DNA of 64,000 bases from Acidobacteriota bacterium. Lineage in GTDB: Bacteria; Acidobacteriota; Terriglobia; Terriglobales; Acidobacteriaceae. Both the position numbers and the translations under genes were made by a program. Shown piece by piece: positions 48,460 to 64,000 of this stretch. Location: NCBI GenBank assembly GCA_013290025.1, contig JABCYV010000001.1, positions 545 to 64,544 of the forward strand, in the 5' to 3' direction. Under the pieces are notes generated by a model. It saw only the letters and a list, made by a program, of their open reading frames with translations, searched no databases and had not been told where the DNA came from. Numbering within the stretch: position 1 is the stretch's first letter; the number at the start of each line of letters is the position of its first letter.

Positions 48460-51400
48460 ATGAATTCTCCTGTGGGTATCCTGTATCTGGAAGATGATGT
48501 CGCCGACGCGGAGTTAGCGCAAGACACGCTCGAAATGGGCGGACTTGCCTGCGACGTGACCCGCGTGGAGACGGAGTCCGGCTTCCTCGCGGCCCTACAA
48601 CAGGGGGGAATCGACCTGATCCTGGCGGATTACGCACTGCCCTCGTTCGATGGCTTGTCGGCGTTGACTATCACACTGCGGCAACGGCCGGACCTGCCGT
48701 TTATCTTCGTTTCGGGAACGATGGGGGAAGAGGTGGCAGTCGAAGCTCTCAAGATCGGCGCGACGGATTACGTCTTGAAAACGCGACTGTCTCGCCTGGT
48801 GCCCTCGGTGCGCCGGGCGCTCCGCGAAGCCAATGAGAGGGCGGAGCTCCGCCGTGCTGAGCGTGAGCTCAAGGATCGCGGAGCGAAGATCAGGCGGTTG
48901 GTCGAGGCTAACATCGCTGGGATCTTCACTTGGGACCTCGAAGGTCGGATTCTTGAGGCGAATGATGCGTTTCTGCGCATCATCGGATACCAGCGGGACG
49001 ATCTCGCTACGGGCCGCCTGCGGTGGACCGACCTCACACCGCCTGAATGGCTTAAACTCGACGCACAACTGCGAGTCCCAGAGCTAAAGGCGACTGGTAG
49101 CTTGCAACCCTTCGAGAAGGAGTACTTCCGAAAAGATGGCACCCGCGTGCCCGTGCTCATCGGGGCTGCGACCTTCAATGAAACGGGCAATCAAGGTGTA
49201 GCATTCGTGCTCGATCTCACGGAACGCAAGCGGGCCGAAGAAACTCTGCGCGAGCAAGCTAATCTGCTCAGTCTGACGCATGATGCCATCTTTGTCTGCG
49301 ATATGAATGGAATGCTTAAGTACTGGAATCCCGGGGCACAAGAGTTGTACGGGTGGACGGAGGAAGAAGCGATTGGCAAGGTAACTCACGGCCTACTGAG
49401 AACGATTTTCCCAACACCACACAGCGAAATCGTGTCGGAAGTGCTCCGTGCAGGCCGGTGGGAAGGCGAGCTTGTACAGACAAAAAAGGACGGCAGTCAG
49501 ATTGTCGTGGCGAGCCGCTGGTCATTGCAGAGCGACGAGAGAAGTTCTCCGGTTGGATATCTGGAAACCAATAACGACATCACGGAACGCAAGCGCGCAG
49601 TATCCTTGCTGGCAGGAGAGAAACGGGTCCTTGAGATGGTCGCGAGAGGAGATTCTCTCGCTCAAATACTTGACGCGTTGTGCCGGCTTGTAGAAGAACA
49701 AGCCAGCGGCGTTCTGACCTCGATCTTATTACTGGATGGAAGTCGATTACGGCATGGCGCCGCACCCAGCCTTCCCAAAGCCTATACCGATGCAATTGAT
49801 GGCGCTGCGATTGGGCCCTCAGGGTTTTCCTGTGGAACGGCCGCCTACCTGGGCAAACAGGTCGTTGTGGAGGACACAGCAATCGACCCCTTGTGGGTGA
49901 ACTATCGCGACCTGGCTTTGGCCCATTCTCTGCGCGCTTGTTGGTCCACGCCGGTCTTCTCGTCACAAGGTAAAGTCATTGCAACCTTCGCTATGTACTA
50001 TCGCGCACCTCGACGCCCCAGTCAGCGCGACCAGGAGATCATCGAACAGATGAGTCGTTTGGCGGGAGTCGCCATTGAACCTAAGCTGACACAGGAGCTT
50101 CTGCGGCGCAGCGAAGCTTATCTGGCGGAAGCGCAGAAGCTCACCCTGACAGGCAGTTGTGCCATTGACGGCACTAATCGCGAGATCCAGTACTGGTCCG
50201 AGGAAATGTTCCGACTTTTCGGCTTTGATCGGCAACAGGGCTTACCAATGTGGGACCAGTGGGTGCAACGAATACACCCAGAAGACCGTGACAAGTTCAG
50301 GATGGCAGGTGATAGGACGTTCCTCGAGAAAGTAGATTGCGACGTCGAGTTCAGAATCGTGAAACCCGATGGAACAGTCAAACACATTCATGGCATCGGC
50401 CATCCAGTTTTGAGTCGCAATGGAGAGCTTGTTCAAGTGGTCGGCACCATGGTCGATGTCACGGAGCGCAGGCGTGCCGAAGAATCCTTGCGCCGTAGCG
50501 AGAGCTATCTGGCAGAAGCGCAGCGGCTCGCTCATATAGGAAGTTGGGCATTCGACGCACTTCAAAAGACACCGCTGTACCTCTCAGAGGAATGGTGTCG
50601 CCTGTTCGGGTTCGATCCAAAAGACGGTATGCCTACTTGGGAACAACGACTGCTGCGGGTTCATCCCGATGATCTGCCTTTATTTCAAGCGGCGGTCGAT
50701 CGCGCAACGAGAGAAAAATCGGAATTGGACGTAGAGTTCCGAATTCTGCTTCCGCGCTCCGCCGTCAGATACATTCGTTCCGTTGGCCACCCGGTTTTGG
50801 GCCCATCGGGGGAAGTAACGCAGTTCGTAGGTGTCACGATGGACGTGACTGACAGCAAGCAAGCAGAGGAAGAGCGTGAAAGATTGCGTCGCACTCAAGC
50901 AGAGCTGGAGCACATGAGGCGGGTGAGTACGTTGGGTGAACTGACGGCCTCGCTCGCCCATGAAATCAAGCAGCCCATCGGAGCCGCCGTAACCAACGCG
51001 GAAGTGTGCCTGCGATTGCTTGATCGCTCTCAACCCGATATTGCCGAGGCACGGGAAGCTGCTTTGGAAATGGCCAAAGACGCCAGGCGGGCAGCAGACA
51101 TTATTGACCGCGTCCGCTCGCTGTTCCAAAAGAGTTCTTCGGGTCCGGCGGTAGTCGACGTAAACGAAGTCATTGAAGAAATGGTTGTTATGCTACAGAA
51201 CGATGCGCATCGGCATTCAGTTACGATACACGCCGATCTTGCCGGAGGGCTCCCCCAAGCAATGGCCGATCGAGTGCAGCTGCAGCAGGTACTAATGAAT
51301 CTCATGCTGAACGGTATCGAGGCGATGCAGGGTGCCGGCGGCGAACTCAGCGTAAGATCGCAGTTGGCCGATGACGGCCAACTGCTGATTTCGGTCATCG

Positions 51401-51606
51401 ATAGCGGCGAGGGACTGCCCGCGGAGAGTGTAGACAAGATCTTCGACGCATTCTTTACGACAAAATCCCAAGGTACAGGTCTGGGATTGGCGATTACCCG
51501 TTCCATTGTTAAATCGCACGGTGGTCGAATTTGGGCCACTGGAAACTCCGATCGGGGGACAACGTTTAGTTTTACCCTGCCCAGTAGGGTCGCAGTAGCT
51601 GCATGA
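48460..51606 (+). CDS. hybrid REC-PAS-GAF-PAS sensor histidine kinase
   Basis: N-terminal receiver ([25 protein letters not shown]), multiple PAS repeats, a GAF-like block, His[18 protein letters not shown], and HATPase. Confidence 0.9.
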
Positions 51607-52229
51607 CCTCTCCCGATACTCCCACTGTGTTCGTTGTCGATGATGATGACCGCATGCGTGCGGCTATGCAGCGGCTGTTAAAGACGGTGGGGTTGCACTC
51701 GGAGTCGTTTGCTACGCCACAAGACTTTCTGCGGCGGAAGCTTCCAGACGCTCCCAGCTGCCTCGTACTGGATATACGACTTCCCGGAATGAGCGGCCTG
51801 GAGGTCCAAAGCAAACTAAACGAGACAGGAGCTCAGATCCCCATCATTTTCATCACCAGCCATGGGGATATTCCCATGACTGTCAAAGCGATGAAGTCTG
51901 GCGCGCTGGAATTTCTGACAAAGCCTTTCCGCGATCAGGACCTGATCGATGCGATTCAGCAAGCGCTGAAGAGCAATGCACAAGCGCGGCAAGAACAGAA
52001 CGAGCTTGCGCAATTGCAAGAACGCTACGCGAAATTGACAGCGCGCGAGCGCGAGGTCATGCGTCTCATTGTTTCCGGCATGCTTACGAAGCAGATTGCC
52101 TCGACACTTGGCACTACCGAAATCACCGTGACGGTGCAGCGTGGGCAAGTAATGCGCAAGATGGAAGCGAACTCGCCCGCTGAGCTAGGAAGAATGGCAG
52201 AAAGGCTCAAGCTTCCGACAGCCCCCTAA
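51603..52229 (+). CDS. FixJ/NarL-type response regulator
   Basis: Paralog of 41482-42108 ([23 protein letters not shown], LuxR HTH). The start overlaps the kinase stop. Confidence 0.9.
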
Positions 52230-52378
52230 CCCGTACCGCCGACCCCTACCCCGCCCCGCAGGCACGACTACGAACCCCCTTATACATACCTATCATCGCC
52301 TCTATCACAACCAATAATTGCGTTTTGCGCACAGCGGATCAATCTTGTACCTGTATGGCCAGAGAGAGGAAAGGGAAA

Positions 52379-52738
52379 ATGGTTGCTGTTATTGAGGATG
52401 ACGAATCGTATCGAGTCGCCGTGCAACGTTTGCTGAAATCGGCAGGCTTTTCAGTGCAATCGTTCGCCTCTGCCGAGGATTTCCTAAGCTCTGGCCGGCA
52501 ACACGAAACTGGGTGTCTGATCAGCGATATCCGCATGCTGGGGATGTCTGGCCTGGACCTTCAGGCTAAGTTGAATGCTGATCACTGCCCGATTCCAACC
52601 ATTTTTATTACTGCACACGGGGAAGAAGACATGCGATTGCAGGCAATGCGAGGCGGTGCAGTGAAATTTATGGTCAAGCCTTTTGATGGCGCAATTCTAC
52701 TTGAAAGCGTTCGAGTGGCCTTGGAAGCTGAGGATTGA
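52379..52738 (+). CDS. stand-alone receiver domain protein
   Basis: MVAVIEDDESYRVAV..., LISDIRMLGMSG, VKPF. ATG 52379 follows GAGAGGAAAGGG. Confidence 0.85.
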   Translation: MVAVIEDDESYRVAVQRLLKSAGFSVQSFASAEDFLSSGRQHETGCLISDIRMLGMSGLDLQAKLNADHCPIPTIFITAHGEEDMRLQAMRGGAVKFMVKPFDGAILLESVRVALEAED

Positions 52739-52774
52739 TTAAGTCGATTGCACGGTCTTTGGTAGGAGGTAGTT

Positions 52775-53809
52775 ATGGGCGCCTTTGAGAGACTACGCTC
52801 TGACGAACGCGAAGACAGAGACCGTCAATTTGATCACATTGTCGGCAACAGCCCCGCTCTTGAATCAGCTCTCGCGGAAGTGCAACGTGTGGCGCCAACT
52901 GATTCCACGGTGCTGGTTCTGGGAGAAACCGGGACGGGGAAGGAATTGATCGCCCGTGCCATTCACAATCTGAGCGCGCGCTGCGGACGCCCCTTCGTGA
53001 AGCTTAACTGCGCTGCCATACCGTTCGATCTCTTGGAGAGTGAGTTGTTTGGGCACGAGAAGGGTGCCTTTACCGGGGCCGTGGCACAAAAAATTGGCCG
53101 CTTCGAAATGGCTGATACCGGCACTCTTTTTCTTGACGAAATTGGGGACTTGCCGCTGGGCCTACAGCCGAAACTTTTGCGCGTTTTGCAGGAACAAGAG
53201 TTCGAACGCGTTGGCAGCGGCCGCACGCATCACATCAACTTGCGTCTGGTTGCCGCTACCCATCGCGATCTGGCGCAGATGGTTGCACGTAAGGAATTTC
53301 GCAGTGATCTTTACTATCGGCTGAACGTATTTCCTGTCGTGGTTCCGCCTTTGCGGGAGCGCCGGGAGGACATACGCCAGTTGGCAGTTCATTTCGCCGA
53401 GGTATTCGCCCGGCGGATGGGGAAGCACATTGAACAAATACCGGAGACAACGATGGATGCATTCATTGCATATCCTTGGCCGGGCAATGTACGCGAGCTC
53501 CAAAACCTCATTGAACGGGCCGTAATCCGATCAGACGATGGCGTGCTTCCGAATCCTCTGCCTTCACCACAGACGAATACAACACCCCCAATTGCCCCAC
53601 AAGGAACACTGCGTGATCACGAAGCAACTCTGATTTTGCAGACTTTGCGGGCTGCCGGAGGAATGATAGGAGGGCCCCGAGGAGCAGCTGCCCGGCTGGG
53701 GCTTAAGCGTACAACATTGGTCTCCAAGATGAAGAGGCTCGGGATATACCGACCGCGGTTTCAGCAACTCATCGATGAGGTCAACGAGGGACCGGAACTG
53801 GCGGTATGA
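52775..53809 (+). CDS. sigma-54-dependent activator lacking an N-terminal regulatory domain (paralog of 43071-44105)
   Basis: Same 344-aa length. Long stretches are near-identical at the nucleotide level to 43071-44105. GAFTGA loop is present. Confidence 0.9.
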
Positions 53810-56783: not shown

Positions 56784-57310
56784 ATGAGAGTCGCCATCTA
56801 CACACGGGCCTCGACGGGGAAGCAGGACACAGAGAACCAAGCTGAGCAGTTGTGGGAGTTCGCTGCGAAGATGTGTTGGACCATCTGCTTTGAGCTTTGA
56901 GTTCAGCGACGTGGTCAAAGGAACAAAGAGCGAGAAGGACAGACCGCAGTTCAAGCTCATGTTCGAACTGGCATCGCGAAGAGAGTTCGATCTGGTACTG
57001 TTTCTGGGCATTGGATCGGTTCTCACGCGAAGGCATGCAGCCGACACTCCATCACCTGCAACGTCTCGACGCTTATGGCGCGTGGAGGTCGTTCACCGAG
57101 CAGTACCTTGCCTCGACGGGTGTGTTCAAAGACTACGTGATATCCATTATGGCGACCTATCGCCAAGCACGAGAACATTGGCGGCTCAGAGCGCGTCAAG
57201 GCAGGACTGGCCAGAGCCAAGCGCGACGGTGCGCGATTCGGAAGGCCGCGAGTTTCGGATGCGAAAGCCAGTGGAACGACGCTGTGGAGACGCCGGCAAG
57301 AGAGCAAATG
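56784..57310 (+). pseudogene. serine recombinase (resolvase/invertase) pseudogene, multiple frameshifts, C-terminally truncated
   Basis: MRVAIYTRASTGKQDTENQ (catalytic Ser region) / EFSDVVKGTKSEKDRPQFKLMFELASRREFDLVLF / WALDRFSREGMQPTLHHLQRL / SERVKAGLARAKRDGARFGRP lie in different frames. Confidence 0.8.
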
Positions 57311-57322
57311 ACCGTGTCCAGA

Positions 57323-57778
57323 TTAAGAGTCTTCCTTGTCACCAGCAGCTTTGCGGCCCAGCTTCCCCATCACGTATGACTTGGCTAGCCCAAATAGCTT
57401 CATGAGATTCGACTGGGAGAGAAGTCCACAGAGAAAGAGAGAGATCCCAGAAAGGATGATGAAGATGAGGATCGAGATGCGGCAGAGCGCAGTGGCATTA
57501 CGCGGTAGATAGAGTAGTGCATACCAACACAGCGAACCCGTGATGACACCAAGCCCAACGTTCAGCCACAGGAACGTCGTGAGTGATAAGCGCGCACCTT
57601 GCTTCTGTTCGTATTTGCTACTTCGCTTTGCAAGGTCTATGGCTGCCGCCCGAATGTCAGGATTAGGGGATTTGTCCGCCAGCCGAAGCAGATCCATGAC
57701 TTGCTGGTGGGCTTGTTGCTGGAGCGATAGAGCGGAATTGCTTTTCCGTGATTGCTCAGCTTTGGCGGTATTTGCCAT
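57323..57778 (-). CDS. hypothetical 2-TM membrane protein (last gene of a 3-gene cassette)
   Basis: Soluble N-terminus followed by two long hydrophobic helices (LSLTTFLWLNVGLGVITGSLCWYALLYL; ISILIFIILSGISLFLCGLL). The start abuts the upstream stop. Confidence 0.6.
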   Translation of the reverse strand: MANTAKAEQSRKSNSALSLQQQAHQQVMDLLRLADKSPNPDIRAAAIDLAKRSSKYEQKQGARLSLTTFLWLNVGLGVITGSLCWYALLYLPRNATALCRISILIFIILSGISLFLCGLLSQSNLMKLFGLAKSYVMGKLGRKAAGDKEDS

Positions 57779-58164
57779 TACGCTGCGAGATCTCTCAGTG
57801 CATCCGTCGTAGGAGTGAATGCGATCTCGACCTTCAAGTCTGAAAGATCATGATCTCGGTCGCAGAAATCACAGTGAGGGGGTATTTCGTCTAACTCGTC
57901 AGGACTGTCTACAGTTGCGAGGAGGGCATTTTCCTTACGGCAGTAGACGTTGTAGACACGGCGAAGGACGCCCGCTTCCGATAGGAGATCAAGCAGCACG
58001 AACGCTTCACCGTCATTTAGATGGAGAGCTACAGCGGCGAGCTTCGGTATTATGTACTCCTGCCCGTCCTCCGTTTGCGCCTGGATGTATGCGACCAACC
58101 GATCGAGCAATGGCGCGAGGCGAGGATATTGTCGCTTAATGCTCTCGAACTTTTGAGACAACAT
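57778..58164 (-). CDS. hypothetical small protein (possible wHTH plus Cys pair)
   Basis: 128-aa ORF overlapping both neighbours. Contains the motif CDFCD. No family recognised. Confidence 0.5.
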   Translation of the reverse strand: MLSQKFESIKRQYPRLAPLLDRLVAYIQAQTEDGQEYIIPKLAAVALHLNDGEAFVLLDLLSEAGVLRRVYNVYCRKENALLATVDSPDELDEIPPHCDFCDRDHDLSDLKVEIAFTPTTDALRDLAA

Positions 58165-59125
58165 ACTCTACCTCGTCGTTGCTGCAATCGGCATTGACTT
58201 TAACGAAGCCTTCTTCGGCGTCGATGTGCGTAAAGACCTCGCGTGTCAGAAATCCGCTCGACACTTTTGGAAGCCAGTAGAATGACTGTGCATCCCATGC
58301 CCAAGTCTCGCCATACTTTTTGTACGCGAGCTGCCAGTCAGGGTTGTGTCTTATGTCCGCACGCGGCCCGCTAGTCTTGGTCTTGTAGTTCTTTTGCGTG
58401 GTGTGATCGTCGATGTGAATGCGAACGATGCGCGGATCTTCATTCTCGACCAGACTCTTGATCACTATTCGGAGTTCAAACGCTTCCACTTTACAGCCCA
58501 GAACATCGCGTGCCTTCTGAAGGTATGCTCCATAATACGCCTGTGCGGTTGGGCGACCGCTTCCGTCTTCGTACGAGTGCACGTTCTCTGGGGGATTGAG
58601 GCGAAGCTCGGCTGTTCCAGCTGAGAAATCAGCGATCAGAACCGCTCGTTTTTGGATGGGATATTTTTCAAGTCCGGTTCCCTGTGGATTGACTCTCACC
58701 AACTCCTGTTCTTCTGCCCATTTAACTCGAAGGAGGTCACCTTCGATGTGTGCGTAAACAGGTGACATCGCCTGCGTCTTTTTTCCCGCAAATGTTCGCT
58801 TCGTCACGATTGGGATCGCGAACTGCTTAAGGCGATGGACGAGGGCGTTCTGGGCAGTCTTGCCTTCGTGTCTCTCCATGCGAAAAAGGTAGATTCGCAT
58901 GTCACTTGCTTCTTCGAAGCCGATCAGCGCCGCCTCCAGCGCGTCTTCTGCTAATTGCTTTTTGACAATAAGTGTGACGATGTGGTCGGTAATCGCCGCT
59001 CTCGATAGTGCTGGAGCAGGGAGGCCAATGGCTTTCAACCATGCCCTTAGGCCTTCCACGGCGACCTTATCGAGGACGGGCTTGACCCGTTGCTGGATCT
59101 CTGGCGGGGTATTACCGTCACCCAT
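58136..59125 (-). CDS. hypothetical protein with SAP-like N-terminal motif
   Basis: 329-aa ORF. GLRAWLKAIGLPAPALSRAAITDHIVTLI resembles a SAP helix-extended-helix motif. The rest is unrecognised. Confidence 0.6.
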   Translation of the reverse strand: MGDGNTPPEIQQRVKPVLDKVAVEGLRAWLKAIGLPAPALSRAAITDHIVTLIVKKQLAEDALEAALIGFEEASDMRIYLFRMERHEGKTAQNALVHRLKQFAIPIVTKRTFAGKKTQAMSPVYAHIEGDLLRVKWAEEQELVRVNPQGTGLEKYPIQKRAVLIADFSAGTAELRLNPPENVHSYEDGSGRPTAQAYYGAYLQKARDVLGCKVEAFELRIVIKSLVENEDPRIVRIHIDDHTTQKNYKTKTSGPRADIRHNPDWQLAYKKYGETWAWDAQSFYWLPKVSSGFLTREVFTHIDAEEGFVKVNADCSNDEVEYVVSKVREH

Positions 59126-59390
59126 GTGGGTGTTGTCGCTCCCTATCGACTAACCTTGGGGATCAGTGGGGGCTTACCCGTATTGATGGTAGTACGAATC
59201 GTCTATAACACCTAGAAAATTCAATCCTTACTTTCGTGATTACCCTTGCGATTGGCGCCTCAGAGCGCAACCCAATATCGATGGACGCGAGTAGCAGAGC
59301 GGTGACACCCAACCACATTTTCACTTTACTTACCGCGAGCTGGGAGCTATGGTTTACGGTTCCGCCTCCTTCCCCCACTGAGGAGATTCC

Positions 59391-60101
59391 GTGAACAAGA
59401 TAGCGTTCGTAATCCTCCTGCTCTTGGCGGGCGTTGCAGCAGGACAGACTAGACCTGCGCGCGGACCGACACACAAGCAAGAGACACCTCACCTGCAATT
59501 CGTGAAGGAATTTGTTCGGGAACTCATCGAAGATGAGGACTTGAAAACGAATGGCGAGAAGGAACTCAATGAGGCGCATACTCCGAATGAGAAGTTCTCA
59601 GCGGGCATCTACTTCAGCAAGTCCACGCAGCTAGCGTTGCGCTCTCAGACCGCCATGCTCAAGAGCATGCACCTGAATGATCCATTTGACGATCTGATCC
59701 CAACTCTAATTGCGTTCAATCAACGCCAGATTGACTTGCATCAGAAGCTGATCGACATGAGCGGGAAGTTCCTGGCTGGACCCAAGCCCGGTGTGGATTA
59801 TCAGACGCTGATGGCGAAGCTACCGGAGATCCGCGCTGAACTAGACGACGTCCGGAAAGGCTTGTTTGACGCGGCACCCATGGTGTTCATGTCGCTGATC
59901 GACATGAAACCGAACTCTCAAAATCACGTCAACCACCTCATAATCACGAAAGCTGAGAAGGCCGACTTGCGAGATCAGCTAAACATCCTTCTGAAAGACG
60001 AGCCCGATAGGGGAGATCACGACTATTACATCAGTGCCGCGATGATACTCAGAGCTGCCCTGCAGAAGGACTACAAGTGTGCGGATGATCCCTGGGACTA
60101 G
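59391..60101 (+). CDS. secreted hypothetical protein
   Basis: GTG start, and signal peptide MNKIAFVILLLLAGVAAGQ. Confidence 0.6.
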   Translation: MNKIAFVILLLLAGVAAGQTRPARGPTHKQETPHLQFVKEFVRELIEDEDLKTNGEKELNEAHTPNEKFSAGIYFSKSTQLALRSQTAMLKSMHLNDPFDDLIPTLIAFNQRQIDLHQKLIDMSGKFLAGPKPGVDYQTLMAKLPEIRAELDDVRKGLFDAAPMVFMSLIDMKPNSQNHVNHLIITKAEKADLRDQLNILLKDEPDRGDHDYYISAAMILRAALQKDYKCADDPWD

Positions 60102-60104
60102 CAG

Positions 60105-60479
60105 ATGAAACCTTGGACATATGTTGCCGTTCTCTTCTTGACGACCACACTGTGGGGACAGGTCAGGGTCGCCACCATTACCAACGAAACCACACCTGCG
60201 TCGAAGGCTGTGATGACCGCGTTGCGGTCCAAGATCGCCAGCCATCCCAAGCAGTTCACGCTTGTGGATAGCAAAGACCCGGAGGTGAGCCTGCTGGTGA
60301 CACTCGATTGCATACCGCAGTCGCAGAAGACAGATCCGTTTGATTGTTTCTACACGACATCCTACGCCGGAGGCACTACGAAGTCCTTTATGGGCGGTGG
60401 AATCTACGAGGCGACCACGGCAGATGCGGCAGCTGACAACTTCTTGTCGGCGATCGCTCAAGACATCGTGGAAAGGTAG
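60105..60479 (+). CDS. secreted hypothetical protein
   Basis: Signal peptide MKPWTYVAVLFLTTTLWGQ. Lies 4 nt after the upstream stop. Confidence 0.55.
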   Translation: MKPWTYVAVLFLTTTLWGQVRVATITNETTPASKAVMTALRSKIASHPKQFTLVDSKDPEVSLLVTLDCIPQSQKTDPFDCFYTTSYAGGTTKSFMGGGIYEATTADAAADNFLSAIAQDIVER

Positions 60480-61041
60480 GATGGGATGGTGCGGGCGAAC
60501 GCGATTGAAAACCTCGAGGCGTGCCTCATGCTCACGCAGTCGAGTTGCAAGGTACCTGATCCCCTGGTTCCCGAACTCAAAGTGAAGATCATCAACCTGT
60601 CGCAGTATCTCCAGCACGGTGGTGGACTCAAGAAGTGAGTACCAACTGCGGTACCAACCACGGCTAAAGCTGCTACTGCATGACTACTGAAAAACTGCCG
60701 CAGAACCCGCTAGAACGTTGATAAACATTAGGTTTCCTCAACAAGCTCGGCAGTTGGCGGCCCTCAACCGTTTAATCAGTAGGTTGACGGTTCGATTTGT
60801 TCATCGTTGAGCCTGCGTATTGGGCAGAGTACTCTCTTGCTTATTCCGCAAGGGAACGCACGTTGTGCGGTGTAGAGATTGCGAGTGCGGCACACCTCCT
60901 GCGCACAGCAGGCTTCATTTGAGCTCGCGTAGCGCGTGCATTAGAGCCTCGACGACTAATGGAATGTCAGCCAGATGCCATCTGGTGACCTGTCGCGCAG
61001 TCAGCACCCCCGATGAAGTCAACGATCGAAGGGCTATCACG

Positions 61042-62316
61042 TCATGTGAAATAACGAAAGCGAGCATTTACCCTCTTGCCACTTGGGACTTGTTTCAAAA
61101 TGTCTCCTACGCGGCGAGCAGCCCGCACCGTAATAGGGTCACCCGAATCGAACTGAGTATTGTTGAAATTGAGCTTTGATAAGCCGACGAGCTCACGGGC
61201 GAGGTCGGCGGCACTGGTTTCGCCATCCTCGCGGACAAATTCTAGCGCTCGGGGTATGTAGGCGCCGGGGTAGACCTGGAAGTATGGAACTGTACCCTTC
61301 AGGTATACGATTCCGGACTTCTCATCGAACAGCATCGCGGTGCCACGAACCATCGGCGAATCACCTGCGCGTAAGATGCGAGCCCCTGATCGTCTCACGC
61401 TCACCAGATCGAGGAACTCGAGCTTCTCGTCCTCCGCCGCCCGCTTGAATCCCTCCTTTTCGTTTGCATTGAAGTAGGAGGTCTTGTGCATGACGAGCCT
61501 CGCGGGCATGGTCTTGTGCTCGCGCCGATAGGTTGCCAGACCATTGGCGAGCAACTCGTGGGCGTTCTCTTCGGACAAATGGGGGCTGCGGTCATCTTTG
61601 TCGTAACTGGCGCTCCCGCCCTGTACAATCAATCCCTCACCGCGCTCGTCGAAAACTTGGGCCACGCTGGTCATGAGCTTGTCGCCAGCCACACTTCGGA
61701 AGAAGCTCACACCTACATAACATGTGGTAAGCACCGCAGGCTGTCGGGCAAGACGCCAAGGCACGCCGCCCGCCTTGTAGTAAAGCGCCGTATGGAAATT
61801 CCAGGCGGTCGTCGCTTTATCCTGCAAGCGTCTGCCGCGCATGCGCCCCGCGGACACTGAGCCATACGTATCGGGCCGCGACAGCTGACATGGCAGCTGG
61901 AGATCGATCGCCTGTGCTTTGAACAGATCGTGAAAATTGAGACTGGAGGGCGGCGATGCCTGCTGTTCCGGAGCCGGCTCTTGCAGCTCATCGATCGGCG
62001 GGTCGGCCACCGGGGCGGCGCGCGGGGTGTCTCCTAATGCGAAGATCTCCGGCGGTGGCGCTACAACCAGTACATGGAGCCCGCTCCTTCCTGCGAGGTC
62101 GCGGGCGTGGTCCATAAAGGCGCCAACAATATGCGGTAGTGGATCAGACTTGGCGAGCGCCGCCAAGAGTTCGTGACGCGTGATTGTGCGCGTCGCCGCG
62201 TCTGACAACTCTAGGGAGGTTCCAAATACCTCTGTGTCATGCCTGGAAAGGACGGCCGGAGGGCTTTCAGCTTCTGTTCGTCCGAGGCGACACCGTGCTT
62301 GCAGTGTTCCAGCCAA
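61042..62316 (-). CDS. short prokaryotic Argonaute, main MID-PIWI part (continues from the 62211-62492 fragment after a frame break)
   Basis: EVFGTSLEL, LHVLVVAPPPEIF, TAWNFHTALYYKAGGVPWRL, CYVGVSFF, ARLVMHKTS, LNFNNTQFDSGDPITVRAARRVGDIL and the C-terminal FRYFT line up with SPARTA/SPARSA-type short pAgos as I remember them. Confidence 0.85.
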   Translation of the reverse strand: MAGTLQARCRLGRTEAESPPAVLSRHDTEVFGTSLELSDAATRTITRHELLAALAKSDPLPHIVGAFMDHARDLAGRSGLHVLVVAPPPEIFALGDTPRAAPVADPPIDELQEPAPEQQASPPSSLNFHDLFKAQAIDLQLPCQLSRPDTYGSVSAGRMRGRRLQDKATTAWNFHTALYYKAGGVPWRLARQPAVLTTCYVGVSFFRSVAGDKLMTSVAQVFDERGEGLIVQGGSASYDKDDRSPHLSEENAHELLANGLATYRREHKTMPARLVMHKTSYFNANEKEGFKRAAEDEKLEFLDLVSVRRSGARILRAGDSPMVRGTAMLFDEKSGIVYLKGTVPYFQVYPGAYIPRALEFVREDGETSAADLARELVGLSKLNFNNTQFDSGDPITVRAARRVGDILKQVPSGKRVNARFRYFT

Positions 62317-62492
62317 TCGCGCATCCCGTCTACGGTGGCCGTTGTCCCGATCACTCCGATTCGAATCGGGACAGGCACCCCGGTGCTGCCTTTGTCGAAC
62401 GTGCCAAAGGTCGAGAGTCCAGCGCGGATATCGATGTGCAATTTATTCTGATGGAATGCGAGCTGGGGCTCTTCTATGATTTGCAGCTTCAT
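62211..62492 (-). CDS. short prokaryotic Argonaute, N-terminal fragment (same gene as 61042-62316, different frame)
   Basis: MKLQIIEEPQLAFHQNKLHIDIRAGLSTFGTF...RPSFPG matches the short pAgo N-terminus (compare ...YIEEP.ILFAHGQK..D.RDGL.LFGP...RPMFPGFE.VF). ATG 62492 overlaps the upstream stop (ATGA). Confidence 0.8.
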   Translation of the reverse strand: MKLQIIEEPQLAFHQNKLHIDIRAGLSTFGTFDKGSTGVPVPIRIGVIGTTATVDGMRDWLEHCKHGVASDEQKLKALRPSFPGMTQRYLEPP

Positions 62493-64000
62493 CCCCCGAG
62501 CTCCTTGTCTCCGGAAGGGACTAGTAAGGGCGCATCCAGCGCTGTCAGAGAGCTCTCGTCCACACCGGATGCGAATCGAAACGAGACGAGGGGGGCGAAC
62601 TCAAGCAGCCGTGACCGATCCGCCCGAGTCCATGGTGCCCGAAGAGCCGCTTGCCATAGCAGCAGTTGACTCAACACCGAGCGGTTCCGCTCGAAGCGCT
62701 TGATTCCGGAGAGGCGATTCTCGTGAAATCGGTCCAAGTCCATTCCATTTCGGGTGAACCGATACGTCGGGGTGATCTCCAGATACCATTGGCCACCTAA
62801 GGACCGAAAGCGGCCTTGGAACGCGCCGTGGCGCAGGTACTTATGGGGCTTTCCGCTCTTCGCTTTGTGCTCATAATGCGAGACCACCGTAGCGGTGCTC
62901 CGGACCTTGACGTTCGGATACTTGAGACGCCGAGGCGATTCGTCCGGCCGACCCATGAAGGCGTACACGTCCTGGTCTTTGTGATATCGAATGCCCTGCG
63001 CCCAGAGATCTTCGCGCAGCGCAGCATTCAACAGGTGCACAAACAGGCGGCGCTTGTTCTCGTCATCTGAGATCGCCCACTCCTCAGTGTTGAATCGATC
63101 CAAGCCGCCAAGGTCGACGATCTTCTTCAGCCGCGAGCGCTCGGGATCGACAAAGCTATACAGATTGCCATCGTGTAGCGTCCATGCTCCGGGGACATAG
63201 ACCGCAGATTTACCTGAGACACCTTGCCTAAGGAGGAACCAAGAGTGCTTTACTGTTTTGGTCAGCGCTGGGGCAATGTACAAGATGTCAGGAAAATGCC
63301 TTAACGGAATGAGGTTGGCAAAGCCCTCCTCCACTCCGGCCGCCCGATAATCCCGTCCTTCTCGGGAATCGTCATGATGTAGTGCAGGAACCGGGTCGGC
63401 CTGCGGTTTCAGCGGTTCGCGCAGCGGGACCGGCCGAGTCCGAAGGTACCCGCGAGTAAAGGCCGAAGCTGAGGCGCACGCATACTTGGTCCAGGCATCT
63501 TGGCGCCTGAATCCGACGATATCGCTTATGCCCCGAATCGATAGCATCGGAGTTCTATCCCGAGTAGCTCGGTGAACGCCTGCTGACTCCATCTCGATCG
63601 CCAGAATGCCGCGGGCGCTCGTAATCCAGGGAAAAAGCACCCTGGGATCTTTCACAAGCCGGTCGCTGGAGGCGATGGGCCCTGCGGTGAACGTGGGCGT
63701 TCTCGCCGCGACTTCCTCGCCGTAATGCACTTGCAGCTTTTCCCGCAATTCCCGCTGCCAAGTCTTGGGTCCGTACAATTTTCTTGGGGCAGACTTGACG
63801 GCTGGCTTATGCGGCAACTCCGCCCACCATTCACCGAGCTCCGACTCGCGTGCACCGAGGTTCGCAATACCAGCTGCGATCGATTTGGCGATCGGACCGC
63901 CCCCGACGTTATATGTCGTATCCTCTTGGAATTTGCGCGCCTCGACGCTGAAGTCGAGGATTCGGGTTGAGAGAACGACATCCCCGAGGGTGATGTCGTC
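62489..64000 (-). CDS. nucleoside phosphorylase/nucleosidase-like (PNP_UDP-type) domain fused to an APAZ domain; 5' end beyond the window
   Basis: The frame is open to base 64000 (DDITLGDVVLSTRILDF...). N-terminal domain motifs are GDVVLS, IEMESAG and IRGISD. C-terminal half motifs are ANLIPLRHFPDILYIAP, EEWAISDD..RRLFVHLLN, YLRHGAFQGRF, WYLEITPTYRFTRNG and IKRFERNRSVL (APAZ-like). Confidence 0.78.
   Translation of the reverse strand, partial: DDITLGDVVLSTRILDFSVEARKFQEDTTYNVGGGPIAKSIAAGIANLGARESELGEWWAELPHKPAVKSAPRKLYGPKTWQRELREKLQVHYGEEVAARTPTFTAGPIASSDRLVKDPRVLFPWITSARGILAIEMESAGVHRATRDRTPMLSIRGISDIVGFRRQDAWTKYACASASAFTRGYLRTRPVPLREPLKPQADPVPALHHDDSREGRDYRAAGVEEGFANLIPLRHFPDILYIAPALTKTVKHSWFLLRQGVSGKSAVYVPGAWTLHDGNLYSFVDPERSRLKKIVDLGGLDRFNTEEWAISDDENKRRLFVHLLNAALREDLWAQGIRYHKDQDVYAFMGRPDESPRRLKYPNVKVRSTATVVSHYEHKAKSGKPHKYLRHGAFQGRFRSLGGQWYLEITPTYRFTRNGMDLDRFHENRLSGIKRFERNRSVLSQLLLWQAALRAPWTRADRSRLLEFAPLVSFRFASGVDESSLTALDAPLLVPSGDKELGG

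Follow-up and report, generated by a model that had tools for sequence, protein, structure and literature searches.

In this study we analysed a two-gene cassette on the minus strand of a 64,000-nucleotide stretch of an Acidobacteriota bacterium genome (contig JABCYV010000001.1), which is referred to as the window. The upstream gene joins a nucleosidase domain of the PNP_UDP_1 family to an APAZ domain (PNP-APAZ), and the downstream gene encodes a short prokaryotic Argonaute (pAgo). We consider it probable that the cassette is a SPARDA-like (S2B) short-pAgo system in which a PNP nucleosidase stands in place of the DREN nuclease, that it depletes ATP when intact, and that the copy in the window has been inactivated. 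An initial annotation of the window was right on the architecture and plausible on the mechanism; it overstated the novelty and missed that the copy is broken.

The PNP-APAZ frame (62492-64000) remains open as far as the edge of the window (503 codons). According to the open reading frame (ORF) and its translation, the 3' 1512 nt of the gene (62489-64000) encode residues 95-597 and the stop codon. The 5' remainder was recovered from matching contigs, which were found with an adjacent complete gene (58136-59125) as the query. Six metagenome contigs from JGI are 99.99-100% identical to positions 57001-64000 and reach beyond the edge. The whole gene lies on contig L001 (2385-4178), which is 100% identical in the overlap; its start codon is located 282 nt past the window edge and the complete product has 597 amino acids (aa). 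At the other end, the TGA (62489-62491) overlaps the ATG of the pAgo gene (62490-62492) in an ATGA (62489-62492) that couples the two genes, as had been proposed, and a 4-nt overlap of this type is likewise found in the loci L007, L008, L009 and L011. The pAgo gene itself is spread over two frames. Its 5' fragment (62211-62492) encodes 93 aa, consisting of native residues 1-87 and six out-of-frame codons before a TAG, and its 3' part in the shifted frame (61042-62232) encodes native residues 88-483 and the stop codon, that is the rest of the MID domain and the PIWI domain. The shifted-frame ORF spans 61042-62316, and the joined frames give a protein of 483 aa.

By its sequence the system belongs with the S2B/SPARDA-like short pAgos, because the pAgo and the APAZ domain both match SPARDA components best, and another effector occupies the position of the DREN nuclease. 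The PNP-APAZ frame contains the motifs GDVVLS, IEMESAG, IRGISD, FANLIPLRHFPDILY, EEWAISDDENKRRLFVHLLN, RHGAFQGRF, ITPTYRFTRNG and KRFERNRSVL, and from the last five of these the presence of an APAZ domain had been predicted. This N-L1-L2-like domain ('PNTD1-PNTD2'; residues 316-578, 62549-63337) was confirmed by profiles, PDB sequences and Foldseek. The PADLOC model Aga_REase-PNTD1-PNTD2 matched PNP-APAZ at E=8.5e-64, and the REase-APAZ models of PADLOC match via their APAZ part only (profile positions 156-410 of 429). Among PDB sequences the best match of the domain is the DREN-APAZ protein of SPARDA (9jsb_D, E=1.2e-27); next come further APAZ proteins of SPARDA and the HNH-APAZ protein of SPARHA. 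Foldseek aligned the domain with SPARDA APAZ chains at E=1.1e-16 and with a target template modelling (TM) score of up to 0.78.

Similar results were obtained for the pAgo, which was identified by PADLOC and PDB comparisons, as Pfam gave no match at E <1 on either fragment. The PADLOC model pAgo_I covers the 5' fragment with profile positions 1-82 (E=1.2e-21) and the 3' part with positions 82-454 of 455 (E=4.9e-120), in agreement with the earlier assignment of a short pAgo. In accordance with its size, the repaired protein comprises MID and PIWI only, and its alignment with SPARDA pAgos (482-485 aa) extends over the full length. The best PDB matches are the SPARDA proteins 9qbp_B (7.4e-87), 9qbl_B (1.3e-84) and 9jsb_A (1.3e-76), whereas SPARHA (6.8e-55) and SPARTA (8fex_B, 1.9e-38) match more weakly. 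Moreover, we mapped the guide contacts of NbaSPARDA onto the repaired pAgo by residue-level alignment. In the 5'-phosphate pocket R183, K187 and K240 of NbaAgo correspond to H188, K192 and K240, the pocket of the 3' part being listed as H188/K192/Q203/K240. The guide phosphate contact R221 corresponds to R221, N181 and F182 of the base-1 pocket to N186 and F187, and the guide 2'-OH contacts S447 and N451 to N445 and D449, both of which are polar. Five orthologues likewise have H188, K192, K240, R221, N186 and F187. Judging from these residues, this pAgo has probably kept the ability to bind a guide. The PIWI stretches that bear the first and third Asp in active Argonautes read CYVGVSFF and VMHKTS here; by eye they resemble those of the catalytically inactive SPARDA pAgos (FLGIGFY and VVLKTS).

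The effector domain occupies residues 1-290, of which residues 95-290 lie in the window (63413-64000). The initial annotation had recognised in it the fold of PNP_UDP_1 proteins and of methylthioadenosine/S-adenosylhomocysteine (MTA/SAH) nucleosidases (MTANs), rather than SIR2, TIR, Mrr, DREN or HNH, and this assignment held. On the full-length protein Pfam PNP_UDP_1 matched residues 63-260 at E=1.1e-12 (48.3 bits; gathering score 25.1), and the Pfam and profile searches gave no DUF4365 or nuclease match in the N-terminal domain. Foldseek aligned the domain with MTA/SAH nucleosidases at E ~1e-12 and target TM scores of 0.72-0.78. The family profile matched PDB MTANs at E=8.9e-16; identity of the domain to solved MTANs is just 14-17%. 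The AlphaFold2 model, which was built from a 58-sequence alignment with P0001, a protein 99% identical to that of the window, as its first row, has a mean predicted local distance difference test (pLDDT) score of 78 and contains two folded domains. They are separated by a disordered linker (residues 291-315; 63338-63412) with pLDDT <50 and no conservation in the family consensus.

The acidic catalytic motifs had been described as intact, and they are invariant in the family. E230-M231-E232 (IEMESAG; 63587-63595) aligns with the VEME motif of solved MTANs, and S253-D254 (IRGISD; 63521-63526) with RA(I/L)SD, D254 being the putative general-acid Asp. Among 58 family members of 62-85% identity E17, E230-M231-E232, S253-D254, D16, R14 and the G87-G91 loop are invariant, and in 23 more diverse PNP modules this still applies to E17, E230-M231-E232 and S253-D254. 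In the profile-to-PDB alignment the VEME, RA(I/L)SD and EEE motifs of the family pair with MTAN active-site residues, which we take to be Glu172-Met173-Glu174, Ser196-Asp197 and Glu12, respectively, in the numbering of the E. coli enzyme. D254 would accordingly be the equivalent of MTAN Asp197 and match D472 of Cap17 and D353 of DtcC. The residue aligned with MTAN Met9, which belongs to the hydrophobic 5'-alkylthio pocket, is always basic, R14 in the protein studied here and K in distant members. Two more basic residues beside the active-site strand, R208 and K211, are invariant or nearly so. Because of the R/K at the Met9 position and of R208 and K211, we interpret the basic residues as a probable adaptation to a phosphorylated 5' substituent. 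The domain also carries an insertion of ~60 residues (about 140-200) relative to the housekeeping MTAN.

The same module is found on other proteins. Up to 70% identical and with all motifs kept, it is C-terminal in STAND/WD40 proteins of 1,400-1,600 aa in Kofleriaceae, and it is N-terminal in TPR and kinase fusions. Because of this recurrence on STAND/WD40, TPR and kinase proteins the PNP module appears to behave as a swappable immune effector. A housekeeping MTAN identity was ruled out by these varied contexts and by equivalog scores far below the cut-offs (28.3 bits versus 169 for NCBIfam NF004079; 15 bits versus 73.8 for TIGR01704). The PADLOC model of the CBASS 'Effector PN-superfamily' (Cap17-type) matched at E=3e-16 (profile positions 408-498), and we infer from profiles and context, rather than from a tree, that the domain belongs with the Cap17/DtcC immune clade.

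Several further occurrences of the module were observed. Kofleriaceae and Haliangiales metagenome-assembled genomes (L025-L043, L049) encode giant STAND-NTPase proteins with WD40 repeats, some with a CHAT-like segment, which terminate in a PNP module 62-70% identical to that of the window (for example L026:50-4885, L027:17-4864, L031:143-4879 and L038:17-4888); the genome DATMCI01 carries at least five such loci. Shorter PNP fusions are present in Sorangium sp. So ce375 (L042) and others. On Agrobacterium Ti/Ri-type plasmids (matches H13-H25, e.g. NC_010929.1:126126-126908) genes labelled 'HNH endonuclease' contain a PNP module with 26% identity to residues 7-293, and these are probably the MTAN-HNH fusions named in the discussion of the SPARHA paper.

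Among the alternatives, the one that fares best accepts the system as proposed and assigns the PNP domain a substrate other than ATP/dATP, such as NAD+, an MTA/SAH-like metabolite, some other nucleotide or nucleoside, or a base within nucleic acid. The fold and the catalytic triad are common to MTA/SAH, futalosine and purine nucleoside enzymes, and such a substrate is conceivable given the low identity to solved MTANs and a relationship to Cap17 and DtcC that is not based on an explicit tree. However, the immune-clade PNP domains that have been tested, bacterial as well as eukaryotic, were all reported to be ATP nucleosidases, and the basic residue at the Met9 position together with R208 and K211 favours a phosphorylated substrate and disfavours MTA/SAH. 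We therefore regard another substrate as unlikely and ATP/dATP as the preferred assignment.

The fusion and the gene pair are both widely conserved. The best 120 database matches to the 597-aa protein are 62-99% identical to it, nearly all of them have ~595 aa, and all but one carry PF01048. The possibility that a housekeeping PNP gene had been joined to APAZ by an assembly artefact was excluded by at least 120 independent ~595-aa clusters of full-length homologues and by 20 independent loci, four of which were obtained via homologues and sixteen from species-representative genomes. A pAgo gene lies directly downstream of PNP-APAZ in all 20 of them, mostly with the same 4-nt overlap, so that the pairing recurs elsewhere as the initial annotation had expected. 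The loci cover Acidobacteriota, Myxococcota/Polyangia, Bdellovibrionales, Steroidobacteraceae and Bradyrhizobium, and the identities of PNP-APAZ (47-85%) and pAgo (57-91%) co-vary across them. No conserved third component was found, as no flanking ORF family is common to more than two of 21 loci. The neighbours at homologous loci are of the defence-island type (Dnd, AbiJ, STAND NTPase, Fic, TIR and integrases). On PLSDB plasmids only PNP modules, in part as HNH fusions, and DUF4365-APAZ genes were found, each separately; a full-length PNP-APAZ was absent. Intact cassettes are present in the cultured hosts Bradyrhizobium sp. CCGB12, Bradyrhizobium sp. R2.2-H and Edaphobacter dinghuensis.

The cassette itself most likely reached this genome by horizontal transfer, because its GC content is higher than that of the surroundings (58-60% versus 53-55%) and a tyrosine integrase is located just upstream of the complete PNP-APAZ gene. 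It is a self-contained two-gene unit, since no other flanking family occurs in more than two loci. Its closest relatives are found in Acidobacteriota (Edaphobacter, Terriglobia and 'Acidiferrales').

The two pAgo frames had been treated as simply joinable, which did not hold, since a genuine deletion of 1 nt separates them in nearly all sampled copies of the lineage. Compared with four intact orthologues the pAgo gene of the window is short of exactly one base and has no other lesion. The comparison with these distant orthologues and with contig L059 places the loss of one A at 62233-62234, where the intact allele reads ACA CAA GAG GTA and that of the window ACA CAG AGG TA. The deletion truncates the protein after residue 87. 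It is present in all six identical contigs and in L012, and the main database entries of 99-100% identity are fragments of 388 aa and 374 aa, implying the same break. Altogether the broken allele was found on at least 27 contigs (JGI, NCBI, ENA and Logan) versus a single contig, L059, with the intact allele of 483 aa (P0246). Across the 1.45-kb pAgo gene L059 differs from the window by no substitution and one indel, the extra A, and there are 33 differences in the APAZ segment next to it. The deletion is real, polymorphic but predominant in the sampled population, and very recent, because the pAgo gene is otherwise identical to the intact allele. A substitution-count comparison gave no significant sign of relaxed constraint on the broken pAgo (non-synonymous to synonymous 24:40 in the broken lineage versus 74:196; odds ratio 1.6, p=0.13), as is expected for a recent deletion. 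Since the deletion truncates the sensor after codon 87, the cassette of the window is most likely inactive as a pAgo system.

It is very unlikely that the broken allele still functions, whether as a pAgo made of two polypeptides or through ribosomal or transcriptional slippage that restores the frame. In the split version 93 aa would be followed by 388 aa, with reinitiation at a TTG (62208) that opens a 388-aa ORF 2 nt past the TAG. The predominance of the broken allele and a remainder of the gene free of further lesions would fit a functional protein, but with zero substitutions since the deletion the lack of decay is uninformative. The TTG is immediately past the stop codon but is preceded by no convincing Shine-Dalgarno sequence; the split would, moreover, remove residues 88-95 within MID, and all 16 other full-length single-frame orthologues make one pAgo of 477-483 aa. 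A -1 slip would restore the intact ...TQEVFG... exactly, whereas the site (ACACAGAGG) has neither a slippery X XXY YYZ heptamer nor a homopolymer. A programmed frameshift was rejected for want of such a slippery site, and the intact allele just has one more A. That the break arose only in sequencing or assembly, with a pAgo that is truly intact, can practically be dismissed: the difference is a single base and L059 shows the intact reading, but the same deletion recurs in at least seven different JGI samples and also in assemblies from NCBI, ENA and Logan, there is no homopolymer at this position, and the 33 APAZ differences make L059 another haplotype and not a corrected read. We therefore retain inactivation by a real deletion.

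Further damaged copies were observed elsewhere in the family. In L018 the pAgo is divided between two frames, the PNP-APAZ of L046 lacks an internal segment, and PNP-APAZ is frame-broken in L024 and L028; judging from isolate names, the latter two breaks may be indel errors of long-read assemblies. The protein P0251 (747 aa, on a contig of 900,615 nt; NCBI/ENA/Logan), which is ~90% identical, starts within APAZ and is an APAZ-pAgo fusion, in which the C-terminal part of APAZ runs via a frameshifted tail into the pAgo. It is either a decayed copy or a natural fusion reminiscent of the S1A SIR2-APAZ-pAgo proteins. L048 (4001-4417, within a 119-kb contig) and L044 (1097-1591) contain N-terminal PNP fragments only (82-85% identity) with no detectable APAZ or pAgo, and may be remnants of degraded cassettes. 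We interpret the frequent inactivation across copies as what is expected for costly abortive-infection systems.

For an intact cassette the following mechanism can be proposed. By homology to the solved SPARDA complexes, the pAgo (MID-PIWI) would form a heterodimer with APAZ. The conserved MID pocket would hold a 5'-phosphorylated guide, presumably RNA. Pairing with invader DNA may then lead to a higher-order assembly, a tetramer or filament as in SPARTA, SPARDA and SPARHA, and this assembly would join the flexibly tethered PNP domains and complete MTAN-like dimeric active sites. Since MTAN-type enzymes are dimers with composite active sites, dimerisation of the tethered PNP domains would be a natural on-switch. 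In analogy to Cap17 and DtcC, the activated PNP domain would cut the N-glycosidic bond of ATP/dATP, and the resulting energy loss would abort the infection or the maintenance of a plasmid.

Some observations weigh against this interpretation. W201 in the base-1 pocket of NbaAgo is replaced by R206. At the PIWI-PIWI filament interface R285 is kept (R284), but R287 corresponds to E286 with reversed charge, E253 to P252 and F256 to L255; as part of the SPARDA filament interface is thus not conserved, the assembly geometry may differ. The Cap17-type PADLOC match (57 bits) is only modestly above the generic Pfam match (48 bits), and the clade placement of the PNP domain was made from these profiles and from context in lieu of an explicit tree. 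For PNP-APAZ systems, ATP as the substrate, the type of guide and the state of oligomerisation are deduced from other systems. Finally, the PNP-APAZ gene is intact although its partner is broken, which may just reflect the recency of the deletion, though it could also point to a residual function.

The claim of novelty was upheld in part. Rousset et al. 2023, in a study entitled 'A conserved family of immune effectors cleaves cellular ATP upon viral infection', catalogued short pAgo systems with PNP effectors, for which they proposed ATP degradation (Fig. 2B, 'pAgo' context); their supplementary table contains an Acidobacteria 'pAgo' example from a genome bin. 'Cap17(pAgo)' is also tabulated in a review of 2023 (PMC10952713). 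In contrast, no experimental or structural study of a PNP-pAgo was found in the full-text literature, a search that left many subscription journals uncovered, so that absence is not proof. The APAZ partners listed in earlier work (Ryazansky 2018, Koopal 2022) are SIR2, TIR, Mrr, DUF4365 and DHS-like proteins, with PNP absent from the lists, and PADLOC v2 has no dedicated PNP-APAZ model. The cassette of the window almost certainly belongs to the same family as the PNP-pAgo of Rousset et al., and we take it to correspond to their example. Both have a PNP effector attached to a short pAgo with predicted abortive infection through ATP degradation, and their example comes from the Acidobacteria, the phylum of the closest relatives of the cassette studied here. 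However, their paper mentions these systems on a bioinformatic basis, with no experiments, and describes neither the fusion to APAZ nor the clade affiliation, and neither conserved residues nor distribution; the copy in the window, in turn, has a frame-broken pAgo.

Among the solved systems SPARDA (9jsb, 9qbl, 9qbp, 9qcc, 9vx6) contains the closest relatives of the pAgo and of APAZ. It has in common with the cassette an operon of two genes in which effector-APAZ comes first, the conserved 5'-phosphate pocket and a flexible link between effector and APAZ, comparable to the DREN-APAZ bridging loop. Besides some filament-interface residues, the difference lies in the effector, which is a PNP/MTAN fold of ~290 aa here and the DREN (DUF4365) PD-(D/E)xK nuclease in SPARDA, so that the predicted output is metabolite depletion in place of collateral DNA/RNA cleavage. 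With Cap17 and DtcC the cassette shares the PNP_UDP_1/MTAN fold, the acidic motif and the modular use of the effector on varied sensors. Rousset et al. 2023 showed that Cap17 (CBASS) and DtcC (Detocs) cleave ATP/dATP to adenine and that the mutations D472A in Cap17 and D353A in DtcC, which affect the Asp of this motif, abolish defence. Whereas these effectors are activated by cyclic-oligonucleotide binding or phosphotransfer and carry PNP at the C-terminus, PNP is N-terminal here and an Argonaute/APAZ platform is predicted to activate it. SPARTA and SPARSA likewise combine a guide-dependent sensor with a metabolite-depleting effector on APAZ and activation by oligomerisation, which is predicted here too, but they deplete NAD(P)+ where ATP is predicted for PNP-APAZ, and the pAgo of SPARTA is more distant than those of SPARDA. 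The housekeeping MTA/SAH nucleosidase MtnN/Pfs has the same fold and the same catalytic Glu/Glu/Asp positions. It is a stand-alone protein of ~230 aa, in contrast to the APAZ-fused PNP domain of a defence cassette, which differs from it by its low equivalog score (28 versus 169 bits), the insertion of ~60 residues and the basic Met9 position.

The left flank of the cassette, just past position 64000, varies among samples of one population (L001:1-2385 versus L003:1-1932): the tyrosine integrase is present in L001, L002 and L004-L006, and L003 has a MerR-family gene. L001 and L003 become homologous 82 nt before the start codon of PNP-APAZ, and over the first ~700 nt they are just 97.3% identical, which indicates a recombination or insertion boundary. 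No tRNA integration site was found beside the integrase in L001 or L003. Two mosaic patches were observed: L012 has 10 mismatches in 107 nt (L001:2919-3025; PNP residues 179-214) and L059 has its 33 mismatches in ~470 nt (window 62789-63254). Outside the patches the aligned sequence is identical save the 1-nt pAgo indel of L059. These patches point to frequent recombination among related cassettes in the community.

Directly downstream of the cassette region, three overlapping genes on the minus strand (57323-59125; 151, 128 and 329 aa) have no significant Pfam or PADLOC match and do not occur at orthologous loci of the PNP-APAZ/pAgo pair; they may form another system or be island cargo with no relation to the cassette. 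Two plus-strand genes between them and the cassette (59391-60101, 236 aa; 60105-60479, 124 aa) encode proteins with signal-peptide-like N-termini (MNKIAFVILLLLAGVAAGQ and MKPWTYVAVLFLTTTLWGQ), for which Pfam and PADLOC likewise gave no match and which are also absent at orthologous loci. For these two reasons the downstream genes were rejected as partners of the system. The island adjoins a signalling cluster on the plus strand (48460-53809), which by Pfam labels encodes a 1048-aa multi-PAS/GAF hybrid histidine kinase, a GerE-type response regulator, a stand-alone receiver and a sigma-54 activator, followed by SDR and enoyl-CoA hydratase genes, and which appears to be ordinary chromosomal context.

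In conclusion, the cassette belongs to a kind that is catalogued and experimentally uncharacterised, and the idea of a PNP-armed pAgo has been published before. New in our study are the SPARDA-like affiliation of pAgo and APAZ, the breadth of the family and its strict synteny of two genes, a set of conserved residues to which the basic one at the Met9 position belongs, and the fresh inactivation of the copy in the window. Because it is an inactivated copy, the biological importance of the window locus itself is small. As a tentative proposal, which we hold to be slightly more apt to fail than to stand, PNP-APAZ/pAgo may form a distinct and widespread effector class that arose from a SPARDA-like ancestor by effector swap; target-assembled PNP dimers would hydrolyse ATP/dATP, making this the first ATP-destroying Argonaute, and the near-fixed knockout of the sensor, beside an otherwise identical intact allele of the same community, would be a natural snapshot of selection against a system that is costly or triggers itself. 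While short pAgo systems with TIR, SIR2, DREN and HNH effectors have been structurally dissected, the PNP-linked class has received a one-paragraph bioinformatic mention. The family is a good experimental target, for which the natural pair of an intact and a broken allele, with pAgo genes one base apart, provides test material. If the proposed mechanism is true, ATP depletion would be added to the responses available to Argonaute sensors, it would become apparent how an Argonaute scaffold switches on a metabolic fold that is an obligate dimer, and the release of adenine could offer a new reporter chemistry for pAgo-based nucleic-acid detection.

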